From the NCBI GenBank assembly GCA_963807025.1, contig CAWDZT010000010.1, forward strand, positions 25,301 through 89,300: a DNA stretch of 64,000 nt. Reading direction: 5' to 3'. This DNA is from an uncultured Candidatus Saccharibacteria bacterium. GTDB taxonomy: Bacteria > Patescibacteriota > Saccharimonadia > Saccharimonadales > UBA4665. The notes under the pieces were generated by a model. The model did not search any database, was not told where the DNA came from, and saw nothing but the letters and a program-made list of their open reading frames with translations. Below, piece by piece: positions 8,395 through 64,000 of the stretch (position 1 is its first letter; every line of letters begins with the position of its first letter). The position numbers and the translations under genes were made by a program.

Positions 8395-8426
8395 CCAGCA
8401 CCTTTATCAACGGATTTTACAACGTT
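8395..8426. repeat. solo end of the CCAGCACCTT palindromic element family
   Basis: ccagcacctttatcaacggattttacaacgtt starts directly after the ldt stop codon and overlaps the last codons of frr. It shares CCAGCACCTTT...ACAACGT with the other copies. Confidence 0.5.
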
Positions 8427-8982
8427 AGGATATCGGCTTCTTTGGCCTTGGCGGCGGCTTCGGCGTCGCGCGCGGGCCTTGAACCCATGGCGTCTTCCAC
8501 CTGCCCGACAGCCGTTTGGCGTCGTCCTCGCCTATATCTTTGTCTTTCTTGAGCTTGTTGATGGCGTCCATGGCTTCATGCCGGACGGCCCTTAGCTTAA
8601 TCATGCATTCTTCCTGCTTGCCGCTGATATTCTTGGCCAGCTCGCGGCGGCGTTCTTCCGTCAGGGCCGGAATCTGTACGCGCACCACCTGGCCGTCGTC
8701 ACTGGGGTTCAGACCCAGGCTCTGGTCGTCGCGAATGGCGTTGGATATGGCCTCCAGGTTGTTCGGATCGAAAGGCGTGATCTGGATCAGCTGGGCATCA
8801 GGCGCGGTTATGTTCGCGACCTGCTTGAGCGGCATGGGCGTACCATAAGCCTCGACGGTGACACCGTCGAGCATCCCGGCATTCGCCCTGCCGGTCCTGA
8901 GCGTCTTAAGCCCATCCTTAAAATGCTCAACCGTTTGGTTGAATTTCCCTTCCGCGTCTTTGACTATCTGATTCGGGTCCAT
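8417..8982 (-). CDS. frr: ribosome recycling factor (frameshift near 8500; the ORF track ends at 8425 in the wrong frame)
   Basis: The N-terminal 150 aa are typical RRF. A tail ...AKAKEADILTL* is read after a 1-nt shift. Confidence 0.85.
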
Positions 8983-9594: not shown

Positions 9595-9652
9595 CCCAGC
9601 ACCTTTCTTGTCCTTATTCACAACGTTACTCGTACTATTTGAAGGGTGCTGG
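9595..9652. repeat. palindromic element copy (CCCAGCACCTTT ... GAAGGGTGCTGG) in the rpsB-tsf spacer
   Basis: Inverted 12-nt arms with a 34-nt loop. One arm ends 2 nt before the tsf ATG. The first 32 nt are 28/32 identical to the solo copy at 18327-18358. Confidence 0.6.
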
Positions 9653-18199: not shown

Positions 18200-18326
18200 A
18201 CCGGCAAACCGCCCGGCCGTACGCGCCAAACACCAATAAAACCGCGCCTGGCCAGTGACTTGGCCAATCCACGGAATCAGGGCTTAAAATGTCCGCTGAA
18301 TAAAAAGTTGGTTTTTGCGCGTCGCG

Positions 18327-18358
18327 GACGTTGTGATAAAGGTCAAGAAAGGTGCTGG
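18327..18358. repeat. solo end of the CCAGCACCTT element family
   Basis: The reverse complement, ccagcacctttcttgacctttatcacaacgtc, is 28/32 identical to 9596-9627. It lies 1 nt after the stop codon of the 18360..19109 gene. Confidence 0.55.
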
Positions 18359-24417: not shown

Positions 24418-24921
24418 AACCCTCCGGAACTCAGTCTTCGGCCTTAAGTATAGCACCGCCCGAGCGCCACCTCCTATAGCCTATCTATAGTACTAAATGG
24501 CTAGCCTTGTAGTACTAGTTACTAGATTACAGGGGTAGACTACCCGCTTATTGGCCTGTAATACCCTCGTTTTAGGCGCTTTCAGGGGTAATATAAGCAC
24601 CTCCCGGTGTCTCCTACCGGTAGTATCTATAGTGTTTATGTATCGGAAACTCTACGACGCACAATATTGATGTACGGTGGCGTCATATGGTCTTGAAGAG
24701 CGGATCGCCTTGGATCATGCGGCGCAGCTGTTCCTGCTGCCGGCGCTCTTTGCGCGACAATCGTTTGAGCAAACGGTCGTCCTGTTGTTTCCTGACTTTT
24801 TGCGTTTGCATTTTAAAATTTCAAGGTTCAAGTTAATGATGGTTGGCCTGCCACCATGCCGCCTGGCTGTAGATCCGGAAGGCCGTAGCCGGCGTGCCGC
24901 GCCGCGTCTACGATCAACGAC

Positions 24922-25146
24922 AAAAAACACCCGCTAAGGCAAAAGCCTCATGGGTGCCAGTTGGCTGCTTGCGCCGGTATGTCGGTAATGTCGGCATTGG
25001 TTTTAGGGTTTTTGTATTGGTTAAGTACCGAAACTCCAGTTTTGGTGGCTCCCGGGCCTTTCAGCCCGGAAGCCAGTTTGGCTTTTTGTTTGGTTTAACC
25101 AATTTTTGTTGGTTAAGGGCCGAAGCCTTTACGGGCACCAACCCTA
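24922..25146 (-). ncRNA. candidate structured non-coding RNA of about 225 nt (identity unknown)
   Basis: TTGCAT-17 nt-CATACT promoter-like element at 25154-25182 (minus strand). Hairpins include TTAACCAAcaaaaaTTGGTTAA and CCGGGCugaaagGCCCGG. The ends can pair (CAUAGGGU..UGCC with GGCACCCAUG). A T-run follows a weak stem near 24922. There is no long ORF. Confidence 0.25.
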
Positions 25147-25397
25147 TGAATGCAGTATGAACCTTCGCCCAGAGGCATGCAAGGGTTTTTGAACAAAAAA
25201 GATATGCATTTTTTGGGCGCCTTTTTGCGGTTTATTTACGCCGAAAATCGTTGTTTATAAGTCTATGGTTCGGCAGATTTACCCTATAAACCAAGGTGTT
25301 ATATGGGGTTGTGGCCGTTGTACCCTGCCTATAGCCCTTGTTGATTTAATTATAACGGGCCTGAAAATCAGGCTAAAGTTATCCACAACCGCTTTGG

Positions 25398-25718
25398 TTA
25401 GGCTGCTGCTTTGCTGATCTTGGATATCTTGATGACTGTCTGATGCTGGCGGTGGCCGCGGGTCTTGCGTACGCGCTTCTTGGCCTTATAGCGGATGGAC
25501 GTGACCTTCTCGGCCCGGACGTCGGCCTCTACCACTTCCGCGGTAACCTTGGCCTTGGGCACGGTAGGCGTACCGACTCTGTTTTGTCGCCGTCCATGAC
25601 CAGCAGGGCCTCGAAGCTCAAGCTTCTTACCGGCGTCCTTGATGCGCTCGACATTAAGCGTCTCGCCTTCGGACACGAGATACTGTTTGCCACCGGTCTT
25701 GATTACTGCTTTTTTCAT
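25398..25718 (-). CDS. rplU: 50S ribosomal protein L21 (two compensating frameshifts around 25540-25610)
   Basis: MKKAVIKTGGKQYLVSEGETLNVE ... KTRGHRQHQTVIKI is typical of L21. The middle ~20 aa are out of frame. Confidence 0.85.
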   Translation of the reverse strand: MKKAVIKTGGKQYLVSEGETLNVERIKDAGKKLELRGPAGHGRRQNRVGTPTVPKAKVTAEVVEADVRAEKVTSIRYKAKKRVRKTRGHRQHQTVIKISKISKAAA

Positions 25719-25783
25719 ACGTTCATAGGAGCATATCAGAAAGCCCCGCCCCTGTAAAGGATGCCGACCATTAACCGATTATC

Positions 25784-25993
25784 GCGGATATGACATTCCC
25801 ATCCTCTGTTACAACATGTCAACATGTAGCTCGACGTTTTTGACCCCCAGAGGACATGTATGCCAACCTTCCCCTTAAACAAAACCACTAACACACCGCA
25901 AGGTACGCCTACTATTCACCTTACTCCTAACCCTAAAAACGTCGAGCTACATGTTGACATAGAACCGCCCCTGTTAGCGAATGTCATATCCGC
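25784..25993. repeat. MITE-like element, copy 1 (GCGGATATGACAT termini; inverted relative to copies 2 and 3)
   Basis: Outer inverted repeat gcggatatgacattc and inner inverted repeat atgtcaacatgtagctcgacgttttt. The interior matches the flanks of copy 3, with about 205 nt missing. Confidence 0.7.
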
Positions 25994-25998
25994 AACGA

Positions 25999-28899
25999 TC
26001 AAGAGGTCTGCGTGGTTCTAGCCAGACTGATGGTCAGCTCGGCGCTGTCGATCTTGACGGTGGCGCTATAGCCGTCCTTAACAGCCTCGTCCGAGGCTGG
26101 TAGCCAGGGTTTCCTGTTTGATAACATCAGCCAGGCCGGTATCTGTCAGGACGGCCTGCAGGTCTTTGTCGGAGGTTTCCAGCTGAAGATGGATGCGGTT
26201 GTCGACGTCCAGGCCGGCGTCTTTGCGGGCCTTCTGGACATGCCGCACCACTTCGCGCATCAGGCCTTCGCGTTTAAGAACAGGGGTAGCTTCGGTGTCC
26301 AGCTTGACCGCCTTGCCCCATTTGACCTCTTTGACATTGAGTTCCTCGGCGATGATATCGCGGTAGAGCGCCGGCAGTTCCGGTACGATTACGCCGGCAG
26401 AGGCTGGCGGACCTTGACCTTGGCTTCGGCGCGCTGGGCCAGGCCATCGACTATATAAGCGCGGGCGCGCTGGCCATCTCAGCGATCAGCTTCTTGTCGG
26501 CCTTGCCGGATTCCGGCCAGTCGCTTAGGTGGACGGACGCTGGCAGATCGGTACCTTCGGCCAGCTGTTGCCAGATGTGGTCCGGCAGGAACGGCGAGAA
26601 CGGAGCCAATAGCTGACAAAGGCGCAGCAAGGTGTAATGCAGGGTGGCATAGGCCTGCTGTTTGTCGGCGTCGTCTTCGCTCTTCCAGAAACGGCGGCGG
26701 GAACGGCGGACGTACCAGTTGGAAGCGTCATCCAACAACTCTGCGATGGGCCTGGTGGCCTTGTCCAGCCGATAGGCGTCCATGGCCTCCGTCACGGCCG
26801 CCGTAGCCTCGTTCAGGCGCGAGAGCATCCACTGGTCCAGGATGTTATCGCTCTTGGGTTCTACGAGCGGCTCGGAGGGCTTGTAGTGGTCCACGTCGGC
26901 GTAGAGCTTGTAGAAGTTGAAGATGTTGTTGAGCGTCATGAAGATCTTACGCTGGACGTCGCGCAGGAAGTCGGTGCTGAAGCGGGTATCTTCCCCGTTG
27001 ACCAGCGGGCTGGAAGCCATGAAGAAGCGCATGCTGTCCACGCCGTACTGGTCGAAGATGTCGTCCATGGGGGCGTAGTTCTTCTTGCGTTTGGACAGCT
27101 TTTCGCCGTCGGCGGCCACGATCCAGCCGGAACAGATGACGTTCTGGAAGGCCGGTTTGTCGAACAGCGCCGTGGCCAGCACGTGCAAGGTGTAGAACCA
27201 GCCGCGGGTCTGGTCCACCGCCTCGGCGATGAAGTCCGCCGGGAAGTTCTTCTCCCATTCGCCTTGTTCTCGAACGGATAGTGGTCCTGGGCGTAGGGCA
27301 TGGCGCCGCTCTCGAACCAGCAGTCGAACACTTCCGGTATACGCTTGGCGATCTTGCCGGAATCAGTCTTGATCTCGACGTCGTCTATGGACGGCCGGTG
27401 CAGATCGCCCACCTTCTGAGGGGTCGACGGCCCGTTTCTTAAGCTCTTCCACGCTGCCGACGACGGTGACTTCGCCGTCGTCGGTCACCCAGACCGGCAG
27501 CGGCGCGCCCCAGAAACGGTTGCGGCTGACGGCCCAGTCGCGGGCGCCACCCAGCCAGTTGCCGAAGCGGCCCTCCCTTATGTGTTCAGGTATCCAGTTG
27601 ATCTTGTCGTTATTCTTGACCAGGCGGTCGCGTACGTCGGTGACTTTGATCAGCCAGGAGTCGGTGGCGTAGTACAGAAGCGGCGTGTCACAGCGCCAGC
27701 AGAACGGATAGGTGTGCTTGATCGTCTCGGCGGCGTAAACCATGTCGCTTCTTGGTCAGGTGGGCGATTATCCGCTTATCGGCCGTTTTAAAAAATACAC
27801 CGGCTATGTCTTCGGGCAGGCCTATATCCGTAGAAACCTTGCCGTTGTCATCAATACTCAGCACAACGGGTATGTTGTGCTCTTTACCTAGCGATAAATC
27901 GTCCTCACCGAAGGCCGGCGCCACGTGCAGTATACCGCTGCCGTCCTCAATGCTCACGAACTCCGCCGGCCAAACTTTGTAGAGATTACTACGGTTTGAA
28001 TACGAATCGAGGCCTTTCAAATTGAACAAAGGTTCGTAACTGCGTCCGGCCAGCTCGCTGCCCCGCACTTCTTTGACGATGCTGTAAGTTTCGACATCCA
28101 GCGCCTCCAGCCGGTCGCGGGCCACGACCACGGTCTCTTTTTTGCCATCGTCGTCCTCCAGCTCCACGTATACGTATTTGGCGTCCGGCTTCACGGCGAT
28201 GGCGGCGTTGCCCGGCAGGCTCCACGGCGTGGTGGTCCAGCCTAACAGATAGGCGTCTTCGTCGGCCAGCTTGAACTTCACGAACAGGCTGGGGTCTTCG
28301 ACCCCGTCCTGGTAGCCCTGGTTAAGCTCGAAGTTGCTGAGCGGCGTGGCACAGCGCGGGCAGTACGGCGCACTGCGGAAGTCCTTGTACACCAGACCCT
28401 TGTCGTAGATGGTCTTGAACACATGCCAGACGCTCTCGATGTAGCTTTCGTCCAGCGTGGCGTAGGTCTTGTCGTAATCGGCCCAGCGGCCTACCCGGCG
28501 GAACATCGATCCTCCCAGAGGTCCTTGTACTTGAATACAGATTCGCGGCACTCGGCGTTGAACTTATCGATACCGTACTCGACGATGTCCTGTTTGCCCT
28601 TGAAACCGTGTTCCTTTTCGATGGCGTATTCCACCGGCAGGCCGTGCGTATCCCAGCCGATGCGCCGCGGCACGTAGTAGCCGCGCATGGTCTTGTACCG
28701 GGTGACGGTGTCTTTGATGGTAGTCTGTAACAGATGGCCGTAGTGCGGCGTGCCGTTGGCGAACGGCGGGCCGTCGTAGAAACTGAAGGTCTTGCCTTGT
28801 TCGCGCTGTTCTCAGGCTCTTTTCGAAGGTATGGTCGGCCTCCCACTCCTTGAGCAGGTCTTCCTCAATCTCGGCCAGGAAGTGTTTCTTACCTTTCAC
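25999..28899 (-). CDS. ileS: isoleucyl-tRNA synthetase (at least 6 frame pieces)
   Basis: [18 protein letters not shown] and the KMSKS variant [11 protein letters not shown] in ORF 26451..27218. Editing and N-terminal pieces are in ORFs 27363..28899. The C-terminus reads ...[13 protein letters not shown] after a shift. Confidence 0.85.
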
Positions 28900-34775: not shown

Positions 34776-34842
34776 CCCAGCACCTTTGTTGGCGGTTTTT
34801 ACAACTGGCACTGTTGGTAAAAACTGGCAATAAAGGTGCTGG
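34776..34842. repeat. palindromic element copy (CCCAGCACCTTT ... AAAGGTGCTGG) in the nrdR 5' leader
   Basis: 11-12-nt inverted arms with a 44-nt loop containing tttttacaac. It lies between the NrdR boxes and the nrdR SD. Confidence 0.6.
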
Positions 34843-53102: not shown

Positions 53103-54937
<1,835 letters not shown>

Positions 54938-54952
54938 CGACACTCCTTTCCG

Positions 54953-54980
54953 CCCAGCACCTTTGTCCAAAGGTGCTGGG
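54953..54980. repeat. minimal hairpin CCCAGCACCTTT-gtcc-AAAGGTGCTGGG in the rpsA-infB spacer
   Basis: Perfect 12-bp stem with a 4-nt loop and no U-run. It lies 8 nt after the rpsA stop and 16 nt before the infB ATG. Confidence 0.7.
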
Positions 54981-58642: not shown

Positions 58643-58647
58643 CAAAA

Positions 58648-58762
58648 TTTGGCACCGTGCTATCTTCCCAGGGGTGAACCCCAAGTATTGTAACCGCTTC
58701 GAGACTTAACTGCTGTGTTCGGCATGGGAACAGGTGTTGCCCTCGGGCTATGGGCACCAACC
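58648..58762 (-). rRNA. rrf: 5S ribosomal RNA
   Basis: Minus-sense sequence contains CCCATGCCGAACACAGCAGTTAAG and closing helix I (UUGGUGCC / GGUGCCAA). Confidence 0.85.
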
Positions 58763-58796
58763 CGGCCACCTTTCCGTAGAAAGGTGCTGGGCCGGC
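58762..58796. repeat. hairpin with the family core (CACCTTTC-cgta-GAAAGGTGCTGGG) in the 23S-5S spacer
   Basis: ccggccacctttccgtagaaaggtgctgggccgg. The stem flanks are GCCGG/CCGGC. Confidence 0.5.
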
Positions 58797-59168
58797 ACCC
58801 AAGCGGGCGGCGGCACGGTTCTTAAGAAGCTAATGAACGTACTGGTGCTACGATGCTTCGTAAGCACCGACGACCGGTCAATTGCGCGTAAAAAGTCAAT
58901 GCCTCTATTAGTACGCTTCGGCTACACATGTCGCCATGCTTCTACCTTGCGCCTATCAACCTGATGGTCTTTCAGGGAGGTCATAGGGAAATCTTATCTT
59001 AAGGGAGGCTTCGCGCTTAATATGCTTTCAGCGCTTATCCCGTCCGCACGATAGCTACTGGACAATGCTCCTGGTGGAACAATCCATACACCAGAGGTGC
59101 GTTCGACCCGGTCCTCTCGTACTAGGGCCAACTCCTCTCAAATTTCCTTGCGTCCACAGCGGGTATAA

Positions 59169-59239
<71 letters not shown>

Positions 59240-59253
59240 AAGGTGCTCCCCCT

Positions 59254-59288
<35 letters not shown>

Positions 59289-59573
59289 AGCGCCGTCTAT
59301 GTGAACTATTGGGCGCTATAAGCCTGTTATCCCCGGCGTAACTTTTATCCGAAAGCGCTGCCGATACCACTCTCATGTACATGAAATGTACGGACAGCGG
59401 AAAACTTACTCCTACTTTCGTACCTGCTCGGCTTGTAGGCCTCACAGTCAAGCTGGCTTATGCGTATACACTATCACTACGATTTCCATCCGTAGTTAGC
59501 CAACCTTTGAACGCCTCCGATACTCTTTAGGAGGCAACCGCCCCAGTTAAACTACCCACCAGACACGGTCCCA

Positions 59574-59768
59574 GAACCAGAAACATCCACGAATCCGTTT
59601 AGGCGATATCAGATACATTCGCGCCGAGACCTAATTTACGGTCTCTTGCGAACGTACCTGAATCGCTTTACTAGCGACTCGCGCATATTTCTGAGACACC
59701 GTAATTTAGGTGTCGGGGAAATATGCGACGATGTCGCTAGAAGCGGTTCATGGGCAGTTTGTGGTCCT
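59574..59768 (-). other. rRNA expansion of about 170 extra nt at the position of 23S helix 79
   Basis: Only about 23 nt separate GACACNGUC and GUUAGAACA in E. coli, against about 195 nt here. It contains the hairpins GCATATTTC..GACACC-taaattac-GGTGTC..GAAATATGC and GAGACC-gtaaatta-GGTCTC. It has no CCAGCACCTT ends. Confidence 0.6.
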
Positions 59769-60212
59769 GGTAAGAACAAGATCATGACAAGGGTGGTATT
59801 TCACTGATGGCTCCACCGCCGACTAGCGCGGCGGCTTCAAAGCCTCCCACCTATGCTACACATGTCATAACCCGGCTCAATGCCAAGCTGTAGTAAAGCT
59901 GCACGGGGTCTTTTCGTCCTGCTGCGGACAGACGGCATCTTTACCGCCAATGCACTTTCACCGAGCTCTTCGTCGAGACAGTACCCATATCATTGCGCCA
60001 TTCGTGCAGGTCAGAACTTACCTGACAAGGAATTTCGCTACCTTAGGACGGTTATAGTTACCGCCGCCGTTCACCGGGGCTTCAGTTTGCTGCTAAACAC
60101 AGCTCACCTTAACCTTCCGGCACCGGGCAGGCGTCAGCCCGTATACATCCACTTTCGTGTTAGCACAGACCTATGTTTTTGGTAAACAGTTGCATGGGTT
60201 CCTTAGCTGCGG

Positions 60213-60272
60213 CCCAGCACCTTGCTAACCACGAATTACATCGTTGTAAATCATGACCAGAAAGGTGCTGGG
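60213..60272. repeat. 60-nt palindromic element copy within 23S (helix 63 region)
   Basis: cccagcaccttgctaaccacgaattacatcgttgtaaatcatgaccagaaaggtgctggg lies between conserved AAGTTACGG.. and ..CAACTGTTTACC blocks. Confidence 0.65.
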
Positions 60273-60760
60273 CAGGCCTTATTCCGAAGTTACGGCCGCT
60301 GTTTTGCCGAGTTCCTTGACGAAGAATCACTCGTACACCTTGGTCTTCTCGACCTGAGCACCTGTGTCGGTTTGCGGTACGGATAGCATAGTCCACGCGC
60401 CGGAATGCTTTTCTAGTCAGCACTTTTACTGGAATCCGACCATAAGGTCGTCTCATTCGCAGGCGTTCCTCCTGCTTAGACGGGTATAACCGTGAACCCG
60501 CTCCAACTAATATGCCGCGCACATCCGGCAAGACTACGCTAGTACGGGAATATTAACCCGTTGTCCATCGCCTACGCTACGCGCCTCGGCTTAGGACCGA
60601 CTAACCCTGGGACGATTATCGTGGCCCAGGAAACCTTGCTCTTTCGGTGGGCAGGATTCTCACCTGCCTTATCGTTACTCGTTCCAGCATTCTCACTTCC
60701 TAACGCTCCACGGAATCTCGCGATTTCGCTTCGGCGCGATAGGAACGCTCCTCTACCGCC

Positions 60761-60829
60761 CCCAGCACCTTACTTAGCATTTTTTACATACATACGCGAT
60801 GTTGTAAACAATGCTAAGTAAGGTGCTGG
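60761..60829. repeat. 69-nt palindromic element copy within 23S (helix 45 tip)
   Basis: cccagcaccttacttagcattttttacatacatacgcgatgttgtaaacaatgctaagtaaggtgctgg replaces the H45 hairpin between GAAGNU..GG and GGTAGAGGAGCGTTC. Confidence 0.65.
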
Positions 60830-61444
60830 AGACCCATATCTTCGGTACTACGCTTGAGCCCCGTTACATTTTCCGCGCGGGATCTCTTGACGAGTGAGCT
60901 GTTACGCACTCTTTAAATGAATGGCTGCTTCTAAGCCAACATCCTCGTTGTCGAAGAAATCCCACCTCGTTTCCCACTTAGCGTAAATTTAGGGACCTTA
61001 GATGATGGTCTGGGCTGTTTCCCTTTTGAGCGACGAGCTTAGCCCCGCCGTTCTAACTGCCGTAGTTCCACTGACCGTATTCGTAGTTTGTCAAGGGTGG
61101 GTATCCGTAAGGACCCCATTCCGAAACAGAGCTCTACCCCAGTCAGCTACCGTACGACGCTAGCCCTAAAGCTATTTCGAGGAGAACCAGCTATCTCCAG
61201 GTTCGATTGGCATTTCACCTCTAACCACAGGTCATCCGGGCATTTTGAAACATGCTGCGGTTCGGTCCTCCACGCAGTTTTACCTGCGCTTCAACCTGCC
61301 CATGGTTAGGTCACCTGGTTTCGGGTCTAATCCATACAACTAATTCGCCCTATTCAGGCTCGCTTTCACTATGCCTACGACAAATGTCTTAAGCTTGCTG
61401 CATGAATTAACTCGCTGGATCGTTCTACAAAAAGCACGCCGTCA

Positions 61445-61865
61445 CCCAGCACCTTTACCATCAACATTTACAACGGTCCGGTTCAATCGAATGAACGATT
61501 AAACTGGTCTATGGCCTTCGGGAAACCAAGCTGTTTCTTAAGCTTAGTTCTCGCTTGGCCGTAATGTTTTAGCTGCTTCTCTCTTGCTAACGCTAATCTT
61601 CGTGAGGTATATGCCTCATAATAAACGATTTTCCAGGGGCGCAAACGTCTCGTTGAAACGTTTTCGCCGGCATTATGCTGACCTAATCTTCTCTTTAGAT
61701 TGTTGGTCTGACCATAGTAGATATGTCGCTTATTCCGAAGACTCTGCAGAATATAGACGTAAAGCACAGCTCCACTGTATATTCCACCCATCTCCGTTCA
61801 AAGAAATTTAACATTAGTTTAAGAAGCAACCAGCCGTTGTCAAATTTGATGACAAAGGTGCTGGG
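61445..61865 (-). mobile_element. 421-bp element with about 33-bp imperfect terminal inverted repeats, carrying a GIY-YIG ORF, inserted at 23S helix 25
   Basis: Left end cccagcacctttaccatcaacatttacaacggt. Right end (reverse complement) cccagcacctttgtcatcaaatttgacaacggc. The ends are 27/33 identical. The flanks correspond to E. coli GGGAG|..H25..|UGACUGCGUACC. Confidence 0.65.
61483..61791 (-). CDS. GIY-YIG nuclease family protein (102 aa), same strand as the rRNA
   Basis: VLYVYILQS...HIYYGQTNNLKRRLGQHN...RPWKIVYYEAY...ALAREKQLK matches GIY..YIG, the conserved Arg, and the catalytic Glu context. Confidence 0.8.
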   Translation of the reverse strand: MGGIYSGAVLYVYILQSLRNKRHIYYGQTNNLKRRLGQHNAGENVSTRRLRPWKIVYYEAYTSRRLALAREKQLKHYGQARTKLKKQLGFPKAIDQFNRSFD

Positions 61866-62290
61866 CTCCGACTCCTTGTACGCACACAATTTCAGGATCT
61901 ATTTCACTCCCCTTCCGGGGTTCTTTTAACCTTTCCCTCACGGTACTTGTACACTATCGATCGTAAGATATATTTAGCCTTGGGAGGTGGACCTCCCGGA
62001 TTCAGTCAGGGTTTCACGTGTCCCGACTTACTCGACTCTGCAAGTGATAAAGTTCGTAAAACTTGGTATACCAGGCTTTCACTGTCTGTGGCCCCACTTT
62101 CCAGAGGGTTCTACTCGCATTACGTATTTATGACTTTATGCCGATTGATGGTAGCATCGGCGCCTTTTGCAACCCTTCATAAAAAGGGTAACAAAAGGTT
62201 ACTTGCAGGTCACAACCCCTTAATAACATTCGTCTACCAACTTATCCATCCGGCAAATTGCCAGATGAAAGTCATTAAGGTTTGGGCTGA

Positions 62291-62321
<31 letters not shown>

Positions 62322-62853
62322 ATTGGTTATTTTCTCTTCCTCAGGGTACTAAGATGTTTCAGTTCCCCTGCTTACCACTACCCGACCCTATATATTCAGG
62401 CCAGTGTGACCAGGTATGACCCTGGCCGGGTTTCCCCATTCGGACACCTCCGGATCAAAGCATATTTGGCTGCTCCCCGGAGCTTTTCGCAGCTCATCGC
62501 GTCCTTCGTCGGTATCTTACGTCAAGGCATCCGTTATGTGCGCTTGAGTAACTTTTTACGATTTGACTTGGCTACCGTTCGGTGAAGATCGGCACCAAGC
62601 CTAAAGTGCAATTGACCGGTCATCGGTGATTACCTAAGTAACTCCGACTCCGTCGTCCATTGCTTCTCTTTGAATCACCCTGTTAAAGGGGTGATCCGTC
62701 GACCTAATTGTTAAATTGCTAAACTCGGAAACTTGCTGATACGCGGTGGTGCCTAAAAGCACCCTCCCTATCATTCAAGCTTGAGTTTACGTTCAACTTT
62801 TCTGCCTAATTGCCCGGCTGACTAGCCTGGACCTAAACTCAAGCGTTCATATA

Positions 62854-62882
62854 ATTATACGCTTCTTAACAGGGGCGGTCAA
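62854..62882 (-). promoter_or_regulatory. near-consensus sigma70 promoter of the 23S-5S operon (TTGACC-17 nt-TATAAT)
   Basis: Reverse complement of 62877-62882 is TTGACC, spacer is 17 nt, and reverse complement of 62854-62859 is TATAAT. It lies about 290 nt upstream of the 23S 5' end. Confidence 0.6.
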
Positions 62883-63014
62883 GCCCCTTGTGCTGTCTGA
62901 TTTGCAACAGTCTGGTATCTAGAAACGGTTCTCTGACGTGGGGTTTTAGCGCAGGGTAAGCCTCCTGTACGTACAGGCTTGGCCCCCTTGTGTGCCTGCT
63001 GCATCCGCATTGCC

Positions 63015-64000
63015 TTACTGGGCGATGAAGTAGTCGAACTTGTAGGTGGTGTTCGCCTGTGGCGCATCCAGGGCGTTGAACATGAAGTCAGTGGCAGAGG
63101 TCGAGCCCTTGAAGAACTTAAGGCCGGCGGCCTTGCCGTTGGACGCGCTCAGGACGATGTGCGGCGCCTGGCCGTAGGTCTTGCTGAACAGTATCTTGGC
63201 CAGGTCGCCCGCCGAAGGCGCGTAGCCGGTGGTTATGGTAATCGTACCGGTGGTGTCGGTACCGTCCACGGATACGTCGGCGCCCGTGCCGCCCGCCGCA
63301 GTCTGGGCCTGGGCCGTCGGCTGGCCGCCGGCGGTGATGATATGCCCGCCCACGGTGATGTTGCCGGCGAACTCGGCCGAACCGGTGACGCTCAGCGTGC
63401 CGATGGTGGCCGTACCGGCATTGAAGGTGGTAACCGTCAGGTCGTTGATGGTGGCCGTGCCGGAAGCGTTCAGGTCGGCAAAGTCGGCCGAACCGCTGAC
63501 GGTCAGGCCCGCCAGAGTGGCATTGCCGCCGTTCTGGATGTAGCTGGTCTGGCTGGGACCGGGCCAGTAGCCCGGCTCGACGAAGACCATCACCTGGGTC
63601 TTGCCAGAGCCCGGATCCCAGGCCTCCAGCGCCTTACCTATGACATAGCCGGCGCCGGTGGCCTTCATGGCCTTACCGCTATCGCCGGAGGTCGTCAGGT
63701 AGTCGCCCGGCGCTATCGCATCGGAGCCGGGCGAGACGTTGACCGGTACGCGGCCGTTCAGGGCCACGGGCATGGGGTTATCCGCACGGCTTGATGTTGT
63801 TACCGGCCGAGGTGAAGTTATTGTAGTTCTTGGAAACGATACCGACGGTGCTGGACTGGTACGGAGCGGACGACTTGACCAGCTGGGTGACCTGGCCGTT
63901 CACGTCATTCCAGTCTACCCTGCCCTCGGAGTCTTCGCCGTAGGTGTTGACCGTATTGGTGCCGGTAGCCACGATATCGCCATAGCTCGCGCCGCTGGCT
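63015..64000 (-). CDS. large secreted/surface repeat protein, C-terminal part (continues beyond the window; frameshift near 63775)
   Basis: ORFs 63015..63773 and 63778..63972. Repeated beta-helix-like LTVSGSADFADLNASGTATINDLTVT / LSVTGSAEFAGNITVGG segments. Confidence 0.5.

Follow-up and report, generated by a model that had tools for sequence, protein, structure and literature searches.

The 64,000-nt stretch of DNA analysed here (the window) belongs to an uncultured Candidatus Saccharibacteria bacterium of the order Saccharimonadales (contig CAWDZT010000010.1, positions 25,301 to 89,300). FtsZ neighbours likewise place the organism in Candidatus Saccharimonadales. The window carries a 23S ribosomal RNA (rRNA) gene in which the tip of helix 45 (H45) is replaced by a short palindromic element, and the tip of helix 25 (H25) by a longer one that brackets a gene for a GIY-YIG nuclease. 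With 3672 nt against the 2925 positions of the Rfam model, the gene holds about 750 nt of extra sequence. No 16S gene was found upstream of it within the window, so that the 23S-5S pair is unlinked from 16S in this stretch. The H45 element is placed by cmscan as a 55-nt insertion in a hairpin loop, at model positions 1211-1218, between ACCGAAG and GGUAGAGGAGCGUU; the hairpin between these two segments is helix 45. In the rRNA sense the element folds into a near-uninterrupted stem of about 24 bp followed by an inner 10 bp, and the interior arms ACTTAGCATT and AATGCTAAGT are complementary, a pairing already recognised in the initial annotation. The 80-nt H45 stretch has a minimum free energy of -50.4 kcal/mol, compared with -17.5 +/- 2.9 kcal/mol in 200 dinucleotide shuffles (z = -11.5, 0/200). 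The hairpin had been described as near-perfect and 69 nt long; its nature and its site are confirmed by cmscan and by the fold, while the start at 60761 takes in one flanking C, leaving a length of 68 nt.

The termini of the H45 hairpin, CCCAGCACCTT and AAGGTGCTGGG (10-12 nt), are identical to those of the 419-nt H25 element. The terminal 10-mers CCAGCACCTT and AAGGTGCTGG end both elements, as the initial annotation had stated. The H25 element is bounded by 32-nt inverted ends, CCCAGCACCTTTGTCATCAAATTTGACAACGG and CCGTTGTAAATGTTGATGGTAAAGGTGCTGGG, which have the same architecture as the small copies and also carry the inner TTACAAC/GTTGTAA motif; its fold reaches -171.5 kcal/mol (z = -12.6). 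The junction that it occupies, with GGAGC on one side and GTGAC on the other, is common to the window, its relatives and some Gammaproteobacteria, and in E. coli the same junction is an empty site with a 14-nt tip.

Both elements belong to a family that is dispersed through the window. With at most one mismatch, CCAGCACCTT occurs 35 times, compared with 4.0 +/- 2.3 expected (0/100 shuffles), an enrichment of about ninefold, and the exact 8-mer is found 21 times outside the rRNA operon where about 3 are expected from composition. The same stem had been pointed out at two rRNA helices; the termini at H45 and H25 are indeed identical, but with 35 occurrences the motif is not confined to these two helices. 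From end to end, a copy is built of an outer CCAGCACCTTT, some 10 bases that vary but are self-complementary, the inner motif TTACAAC, a loop and then the matching half, in which GTTGTAA precedes the complement of the variable stretch and AAAGGTGCTGG; the outer ends are also given as CCCAGCACCTTT and AAAGGTGCTGGG. Copies fall into two size classes, a short one of 58 nt and a long one of 66-68 nt. A covariance model built from 16 copies retrieves seven small copies in the window, with E values from 1e-19 to 1e-4 and no other convincing match; the H45 copy scores 70.8 bits (E = 2.5e-19). Besides the rRNA copies, the family occupies gene leaders, a junction between two genes, spaces between convergent genes and the interior of a protein-coding gene (Table 1). 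The copy in the linker of translation initiation factor IF2 is translated as PSTFAGSNNNVVTGDGKGTG, leaving the open reading frame (ORF) uninterrupted with Pfam domains on either side, and the decayed copy at the rpsB-tsf junction retains Watson-Crick pairs at 13 of 27 positions. The family is thus scattered over this Saccharimonadales genome, in rRNA genes, between genes and in coding sequence.

Table 1. Genes, palindromic elements and partial copies in the window
Feature	Position	Strand	Evidence or remark
Long-subfamily palindromic element, 68 nt, replacing the 23S helix 45 tip	60762..60829	minus	cmscan, fold, covariance model
Element of 419 nt in 23S helix 25, bracketing the GIY-YIG gene	61446..61864	minus	
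GIY-YIG nuclease ORF, 94 aa	61483..61767	minus (same sense as rRNA)	Pfam PF01541, E = 3e-17
23S rRNA gene	58887-62558	minus	Rfam LSU_rRNA_bacteria, 2535 bits
5S gene	58647-58761		downstream of 23S
Short-subfamily copy, 58 nt, replacing the 23S helix 63 tip	60214..60271	minus	cmscan model positions 1752-1777; 71.5 bits
Degenerate minimal copy, 23S-5S spacer just upstream of 5S	58762..58790	minus	23.1 bits, E = 1e-4
Minimal 26-nt hairpin CCAGCACCTTTGTCCAAAGGTGCTGG after the stop codon of rpsA (S1) and before the infB ribosome-binding site	54954..54979	none	33.6 bits
Copy of 58-60 nt, in frame in the IF2 linker (infB)	54660..54717	minus	61.8 bits
Long-subfamily copy, 66 nt, directly upstream of the nrdR ribosome-binding site	34777..34842	plus	69.4 bits
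Decayed 57-nt copy at the rpsB-tsf junction	9596..9652	plus	47.3 bits
Truncated left half CCAGCACCTTTATCAACGGATTTTACAACG... between convergent ykuD-like and frr genes	8395..8440	plus	
Truncated right half ...CGTTGTGATAAAGGTCAAGAAAGGTGCTGG between convergent genes	18320..18358	plus	

The position of the elements varies among relatives. Four metagenome contigs (L002-L005) encode GIY-YIG proteins 63-85% identical to that of the window; L004 and L005 are syntenic with it (ROK, S1, IF2) and their 23S genes are about 78-83% identical to its own, the range among all pairs being 76-86%. The H25 cassette sits at the identical junction in all five. The H45 site is filled in the window, L003, L004 and L005, and is empty, with a tip region of 24-28 nt, in the L006 group, L018, L024, L027 and L038, so that the 23S genes without the insert with which the initial annotation had proposed to compare this one do exist among Saccharibacteria. 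On the GGGTCT side, L038 reads ACATGGGTCT-ATGCATTAGCAT-GGGC where the window reads ATATGGGTCT, the 68-nt element and GGGC. The same annotation had named a lineage-wide H45 extension with no likeness to other loci as the finding that would speak against insertion; what is found is a set of empty sites together with copies at other loci. Across the window and L002-L005, presence and absence also differ at six sites: the 23S leader, domain I, domain III, helix 63 (H63), the 23S 3' end and the 23S-5S spacer.

Several of these differences are seen directly at the copies of the window. At H63, L004 retains the native CCAGGTATAAAACCCTGG; in place of the degenerate copy upstream of 5S it has a full 63-nt copy; the IF2 proteins of the syntenic L004 and L005 are without the PSTFAGSNNNVVTGDGKGTG segment; and the 26-nt hairpin of the infB leader is missing from the same spacer in L005. 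Apart from that copy before 5S, L004 has one in its 23S leader and another at the 3' end of its 23S, as well as a 68-nt copy nested in the left arm of its own GIY-YIG cassette. Orthologous sites in relatives thus show both gain and loss of copies, and in one case a copy has inserted within another element. In structured RNA genes the element substitutes a native tip of 4-16 nt and does not interrupt it, sitting exactly at the former short helix tip. The H45 site is filled by the long subfamily in the window and L003 and by the short subfamily in L004 and L005; copies group by subfamily rather than by site. The H45 copies of these genomes have their closest neighbours at other sites, that of the window being nearest to a domain I copy of L004. 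A different ORF-bearing intervening sequence is present at the same site in L039, a Saccharibacteria metagenome-assembled genome (MAG): its H45 insert is 296 nt long, has its own inverted ends, ATATGCCAGAAACAAAG... and ...TTTGTTTCTGGTATAT, and holds a small ORF starting MNKKTLILLVATVLALFAILVIV that resembles a signal peptide or membrane protein.

The hairpin is under constraint as a helix. Over 16 copies, 84.7% of cells are paired and both-sided changes are present in 12 of 27 pairs; the covariation score is reached by 0 of 500 shuffles, and a shift of the partner by 1-3 columns lowers the pairing to 37-48%. In the 13 copies from rRNA operons, read in the sense of the rRNA, 29 G·U pairs stand against 7 A·C mismatches (p = 3e-4), and the rRNA-sense strand folds better than the antisense, both of which argue that the helix is kept in the transcript. 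The G·U bias is not seen in the IF2 copy. Together with the compensatory changes, the bias shows that the operon copies are maintained as helices of RNA.

The gene inside the H25 cassette most likely starts at the GTG at 61767, since its homologues begin at an aligned M; this choice from the sequence gives 94 aa, the longest ORF beginning at 61791. PF01541 is the sole Pfam domain detected, and homologues show no variation at the catalytic residues (Y, Y, G, R, H, E). Between orthologues, nonsynonymous divergence (dN) is 0.09-0.30 with synonymous divergence (dS) saturated, which indicates purifying selection on the nuclease; dN/dS ratios are not computable for most pairs, and the conclusion is a qualitative one. 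The AlphaFold2 model (pLDDT 88) consists of a single GIY-YIG domain, whose best Foldseek matches among solved structures are SLX1, At-HIGLE and UPF0213 BH0048, with UvrC far weaker; the nuclease is SLX1/UPF0213-like. A NCBIfam search gave no significant family, an exact-sequence look-up of the GIY-YIG protein found no record, and tblastn against 72,556 plasmids gave no match at E <= 1e-3. The exact sequence of the neighbouring ROK protein was found only on a 1.4-kb Logan contig. A reading of the H25 element as a group I or group II intron was rejected, no intron family being present in the window at Rfam gathering thresholds. The method is able to detect introns, as a group I intron was detected elsewhere in a related 23S gene, at 2524-2839 of L005 (RF00028, 52.5 bits); L004, like the window, has none.

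A 58-nt sequence made by joining the 30 nt at the start of the cassette to the 28 nt at its end is 76-90% identical to the short subfamily (83% for the H63 copy), which gives the short elements the look of derivatives formed from the cassette by a precise internal deletion. By sequence, the H45 copy falls into a subfamily that is sister to the short one.

The nuclease and its hairpins extend beyond the window. A GTDB genome scan with a nuclease profile from the 12 closest sequences yielded 456 relatives. In more than 35 Saccharibacteria MAGs, H25 holds a compact cassette of 317 nt whose arms read AGCCCAGCACCTTTGAAATCGAGT, and small copies are absent from its vicinity. A 47%-identical gene is present in Alteromonadaceae (in all three rRNA operons sampled) and in an Arenicellales MAG, at the exact H25 junction: GGGAGC, then CCAGCACCT...AGGTGCTGG, then GTGAC. 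The CCAGCACC stem is found at the same H25 junction in Saccharibacteria, Alteromonadaceae and Arenicellales, representing two phyla, and conservation is much higher in the terminal stem than in the interior, across phyla too. In the Arenicellales locus (L055) the gene lies between two separate hairpin elements of about 100 nt each; in the Alteromonadaceae locus L050 a complete element is present upstream of the gene only, with a short GCTGGGTTTACCCAGC hairpin after it. An 86-nt CCAGCACCTAAA...TTAGGTGCTGG element lies within the 16S rRNA gene of the Alteromonadaceae loci L050-L052 (3494-3579). L050 has an additional motif copy in the 23S 3' half, at about 7791, and the H45 of Alteromonadaceae holds an unrelated insert of 155-160 nt.

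Inverted repeats of 16-25 nt bracket many homologues of the nuclease; those in other Patescibacteria lie outside rRNA, with repeats of other sequence. In other Patescibacteria and Gammaproteobacteria, some hairpin-bracketed GIY-YIG cassettes abut or overlap the tmRNA gene (L054, 5973-6610) or tRNA genes (L048, 172-546; L063, 5967-6382). The inverted-repeat arms of other GIY-YIG clades are mostly not dispersed in their 12-kb loci, so that proliferation is a trait of the CCAGCACC family. In metagenomes, the pattern CCAGCACCTT-N30-60-AAGGTGCTGG matched at least 120 stretches. Most of the matches listed lie on AT-rich contigs outside long ORFs and have varied interiors; a minority of those listed, on GC-rich contigs and inside long ORFs, are probably due to chance. 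Many of these copies are without nearby 23S similarity, and most of the 16 loci checked against Rfam have no RNA gene at the copy. At L155 (1600-2156) the gene for a bacterial RNase P RNA is 557 nt long, compared with a 367-position model, and three CCAGCACCTT...AAGGTGCTGG elements, each of 75-80 nt, lie within it. On the AT-rich contigs of L087-L202, many CCAGCACC elements have oriented flanks, TTTAT before and ATTTATTT after the element, with recurring interiors such as CTGCGGGGTATTGAA and ACCCCGCAG; with its T-rich tail, such a hairpin is similar in form to an intrinsic terminator. Viral contigs gave only 3 pattern matches, which offers no sign of a phage vector.

Among described systems the closest is Ssn/NTS, to which the elements are likened here by architecture, and not by family assignment or homology to SsnA. 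The Ssn nucleases are 94-aa single-domain GIY-YIG proteins whose genes are flanked by dispersed NTS/SRM hairpins that are cut as single-stranded DNA (Chenal et al., Nat Commun 2025, PMC11893778). That study notes the resemblance of NTS-ssnA-NTS to an insertion sequence, finds SsnA not to act on RNA, counts Rickettsia among SRM-rich genomes and does not mention rRNA or Patescibacteria (PMC11893778). Common to both are a single-domain GIY-YIG protein of about 94 aa with intact active-site residues, hairpin repeats on both sides of the gene (32-nt inverted ends in the window, separate elements in L055), a repeat in many copies (here seven small ones plus truncated ones in 64 kb) and nuclease clades that appear to have cognate stems. 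The elements described here differ in their locations, as they lie within rRNA, within RNase P RNA and within a gene for a protein; the Ssn study mentions no such site (PMC11893778). Their stems are longer (11-27 bp versus about 7-9 bp), the Saccharibacteria gene lies within the loop of a single split hairpin, and the best solved-structure relatives of the nuclease are UPF0213 and SLX1.

Classical intervening sequences (IVSs) of 23S rRNA at H25 and H45 are known from Salmonella, Yersinia, Campylobacter, Leptospira and Coxiella. Both helices are classical sites of IVSs removed by RNase III, and some IVSs carry an ORF, of the S23p types of Leptospira and Coxiella (PMC11270868). The inserts of the window share with them the same two helices, a replaced tip, ends that pair into a long duplex suited to RNase III and a sporadic presence among relatives. 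The H45 and H25 inserts are classical intervening sequences by position and shape; they differ in being copies of a repeat that is also found outside rRNA, and in that the ORF encodes a GIY-YIG nuclease instead of the four-helix-bundle IVS protein. In 2015, Brown et al. reportedly described GIY-YIG-encoding non-intron insertions in rRNA genes of the Candidate Phyla Radiation (CPR). A later survey found all GIY-YIG proteins of the CPR rRNA genes to lie in insertions unlike either intron class, short non-intron insertions at the two IVS sites, short insertions as typical of Saccharibacteria, and sparse GIY-YIG genes (Tsurumaki et al., J Bacteriol 2024, PMC11270868). Palindromes, hairpins and inverted repeats have 0 occurrences in its text, and the short insertions are not linked there to the GIY-YIG cassette or to copies outside rRNA (PMC11270868). 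The H25 cassette represents the same phenomenon as these GIY-YIG-encoding insertions and, in agreement with that survey, its ORF lies in no intron ribozyme at Rfam gathering thresholds.

Other families of dispersed palindromes offer partial parallels. Rickettsia palindromic elements (RPEs) are short palindromes in frame in protein genes and also in RNA genes, tolerated at surface-exposed positions. The in-frame IF2 copy parallels such an insertion; RPEs differ in their unrelated sequence and their phylum, and we know of no report of a linked coding element in rRNA for them. The REP/BIME-RAYT repeats and the IS200/IS605-derived PATEs are tied to hairpin-recognising enzymes, the Y1 transposases, whereas the Correia elements of Neisseria have an unknown enzyme and a TA duplication, and their transcripts are cut by RNase III. 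All of them share with the present family the form of miniature hairpin-forming repeats dispersed between genes, and they differ from it in that the present family has a GIY-YIG hydrolase as its linked enzyme and shows no target duplication. The comparison with miniature inverted-repeat transposable elements (MITEs) is similar: the elements are short and non-coding, have termini common with a longer coding element, and exhibit insertion polymorphism at six orthologous sites together with a nested insertion, whereas target-site duplications are absent. The coding partner in the cassette encodes a GIY-YIG hydrolase, a class of enzyme not known among transposases. A literature search by literal motif (8 million papers) and by keywords gave no description of these repeats; the motif matches were unrelated primers.

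The H45 hairpin is best read as a non-coding member of a palindromic, MITE-like family whose protein-coding relative is the H25 GIY-YIG cassette and whose spread would be seeded by the nuclease, with a probability of roughly 0.7. The insertion of a non-autonomous relative of the GIY-YIG element, as first proposed, agrees with the empty H45 sites, with copies at unrelated loci including protein-coding and intergenic DNA, and with the two subfamilies at H45, subject to the caveat on subfamily given below. By analogy with Ssn and its NTS hairpins and with SLX1, the conserved terminal stem would be the putative recognition site of the GIY-YIG nuclease. The nuclease, together with host repair or recombination, might then act in trans to seed further copies. 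Once transcribed into the 23S precursor, the perfect 24-bp duplex might stay as a solvent-exposed expansion of H45 or, more likely, be cut out by RNase III, and excision would leave a fragmented but functional 23S rRNA, as for a classical H45 IVS.

Several points weigh against this interpretation. GIY-YIG enzymes hydrolyse DNA and cannot carry out strand transfer, so that the chemistry of transposition is missing. No target-site duplication is seen at six filled/empty site pairs, and no target consensus was found. Identity between the H45 copy and the joined ends of the resident cassette is no more than 68%, and the window lacks a coding partner for the long subfamily; the proposal that the H45 hairpin derives from the GIY-YIG element is weakened to this extent, since the appearance of a deletion derivative is limited to the short subfamily. 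The relatives L002-L005 are metagenome contigs of unverified taxonomy. Host-associated Saccharibacteria have the H25 cassette without any small copies in their 12-kb loci, which suggests a nuclease long maintained without proliferation and suits a domesticated or an rRNA-linked role equally. The SRM consensus HGTCWYN(0-2)YYVSBRHN(0-5)WNVSBRGN(0-2)RNCYNB has 0 matches in the window (0.75 expected in shuffles) and 0 in 85 GIY-YIG loci, and the repeats are accordingly not filed as SRM. In the rRNA the hairpin may be retained rather than excised.

The stem might instead be an rRNA-processing signal that is not mobile, a shared processing stem being the second possibility raised in the initial annotation. 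CCCAGCACCUU/AAGGUGCUGGG would then be a recognition helix for RNase III, another maturation factor or possibly the GIY-YIG protein, selected independently at several helices and spacers, with the similarity arising by convergence or by gene conversion in the operon. The G·U bias on the RNA strand and the compensatory changes in the rRNA copies are as expected of such a helix, the L004 copies at the 23S leader, the 23S 3' end and upstream of 5S occupy typical processing positions, and the terminal stem is the part that is best conserved. H25 and H45 are, besides, the classical RNase III sites (PMC11270868). Yet copies exist where no rRNA processing occurs, in IF2, in the leaders of nrdR and infB, at rpsB-tsf and, as half copies, between convergent genes; one is nested in the L004 cassette; many in metagenomes lie away from 23S similarity or any RNA gene; and the two subfamilies at H45 reside in different genomes. 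SsnA, the characterised analogue, is also inactive on RNA (PMC11893778). As a full explanation this appears unlikely, although a processing role may accompany mobility. A second alternative takes the hairpins as targets of a domesticated, Ssn-like single-strand nuclease that modulates natural transformation or recombination, as NTS and SsnA do in Neisseria, the rRNA copies being immobile fossils. The shared architecture of a 94-aa GIY-YIG protein with flanking dispersed hairpins, the long-term purifying selection on the nuclease at a fixed site, the retention of the gene without nearby small copies in host-associated Saccharibacteria and the many decayed or minimal copies are all compatible with it. 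It is rather improbable, because the differences among fairly close relatives (23S about 78-86% identical), the nested copy and the turnover of subfamilies at H45 indicate activity during the divergence of the clade; the SRM motif is absent from the window and the 85 loci, and the likeness to Ssn is one of architecture, not of CDD family assignment.

A chance palindrome, or an ordinary lineage-specific extension of H45 unrelated to the H25 element, deserves next to no credence. H45 is variable and extended in many bacteria, and the unrelated inserts in Alteromonadaceae and L039 are examples of this. The fold, at more than eleven standard deviations from the shuffles, the covariance-model match, the motif enrichment and the empty H45 sites nevertheless refute it, and both termini are identical 10-mers of a family present at other loci. 

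The 23S gene contains further inserts. In its 3' half, 59584-59752 (minus strand) marks an additional, strongly structured segment of about 190 nt; the 207-nt stretch that includes it folds at -110 kcal/mol, and its site has a different-looking insert in L004 and none in L005. It does not belong to the CCAGCACC family. Two more insertions, of 41 nt and 64 nt, are located in domain I (62132-62279), near model positions 283 and 313. The first of these sites contains in the window a short unrelated hairpin with a weak covariance-model match (E = 0.15), and in L004 and L002 a full CCAGCACC element; the short hairpin may be a remnant of such an element. The region upstream of the 23S gene (62600-64000) encodes a 252-aa ORF (63015-63773, minus strand) that is rich in G, T, S and A and has no Pfam match. 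Elsewhere, 25783-25994 consists of nested inverted repeats unrelated to the CCAGCACC family, with an outer pair GCGGATATGACATTC / GAATGTCATATCCGC and an inner, perfect 24-nt pair GTCAACATGTAGCTCGACGTTTTT / AAAAACGTCGAGCTACATGTTGAC separated by about 90 nt, within a stretch of about 2 kb (24490-26451) without an ORF of at least 120 aa. A weak covariance-model match at 25819-25957 was set aside as this separate inverted repeat and not a family member.

Bacterial 23S IVSs have been known since about 1990 and are thought to spread horizontally; to our knowledge, no vehicle or enzyme has been identified for that spread. The small GIY-YIG genes of CPR rRNA insertions were recorded earlier and left unexplained. 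The present locus joins the classical IVS sites, dispersed palindromes that also lie in frame in coding DNA, and a conserved single-domain nuclease of SLX1/UPF0213 type. A broader and tentative proposal, which we regard as doubtful at present, is that a cross-phylum hairpin family, driven by a structure-specific GIY-YIG nuclease, replaces helix tips of RNA genes (23S H25, H45 and H63, 16S, RNase P RNA), so that IVSs and expansion-like inserts would be the non-autonomous offspring of an element homing to H25. The CCCAGCACC stem would then serve in DNA as the hairpin recognised by the nuclease and, after transcription, as a handle for RNase III by which the insertion is rendered harmless. Should recognition of the stem by the nuclease hold, IVSs and some bacterial rRNA expansion inserts would have a testable origin, Ssn-type nuclease-plus-hairpin systems would extend to Patescibacteria and to RNA genes, and a new sequence- or structure-specific small nuclease would be added to those known. 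H25, H45 and H63 coincide with the eukaryotic expansion-segment (ES) sites ES7, ES15 and ES27, and the system therefore also reports the surfaces of the ribosome that accept extra RNA.

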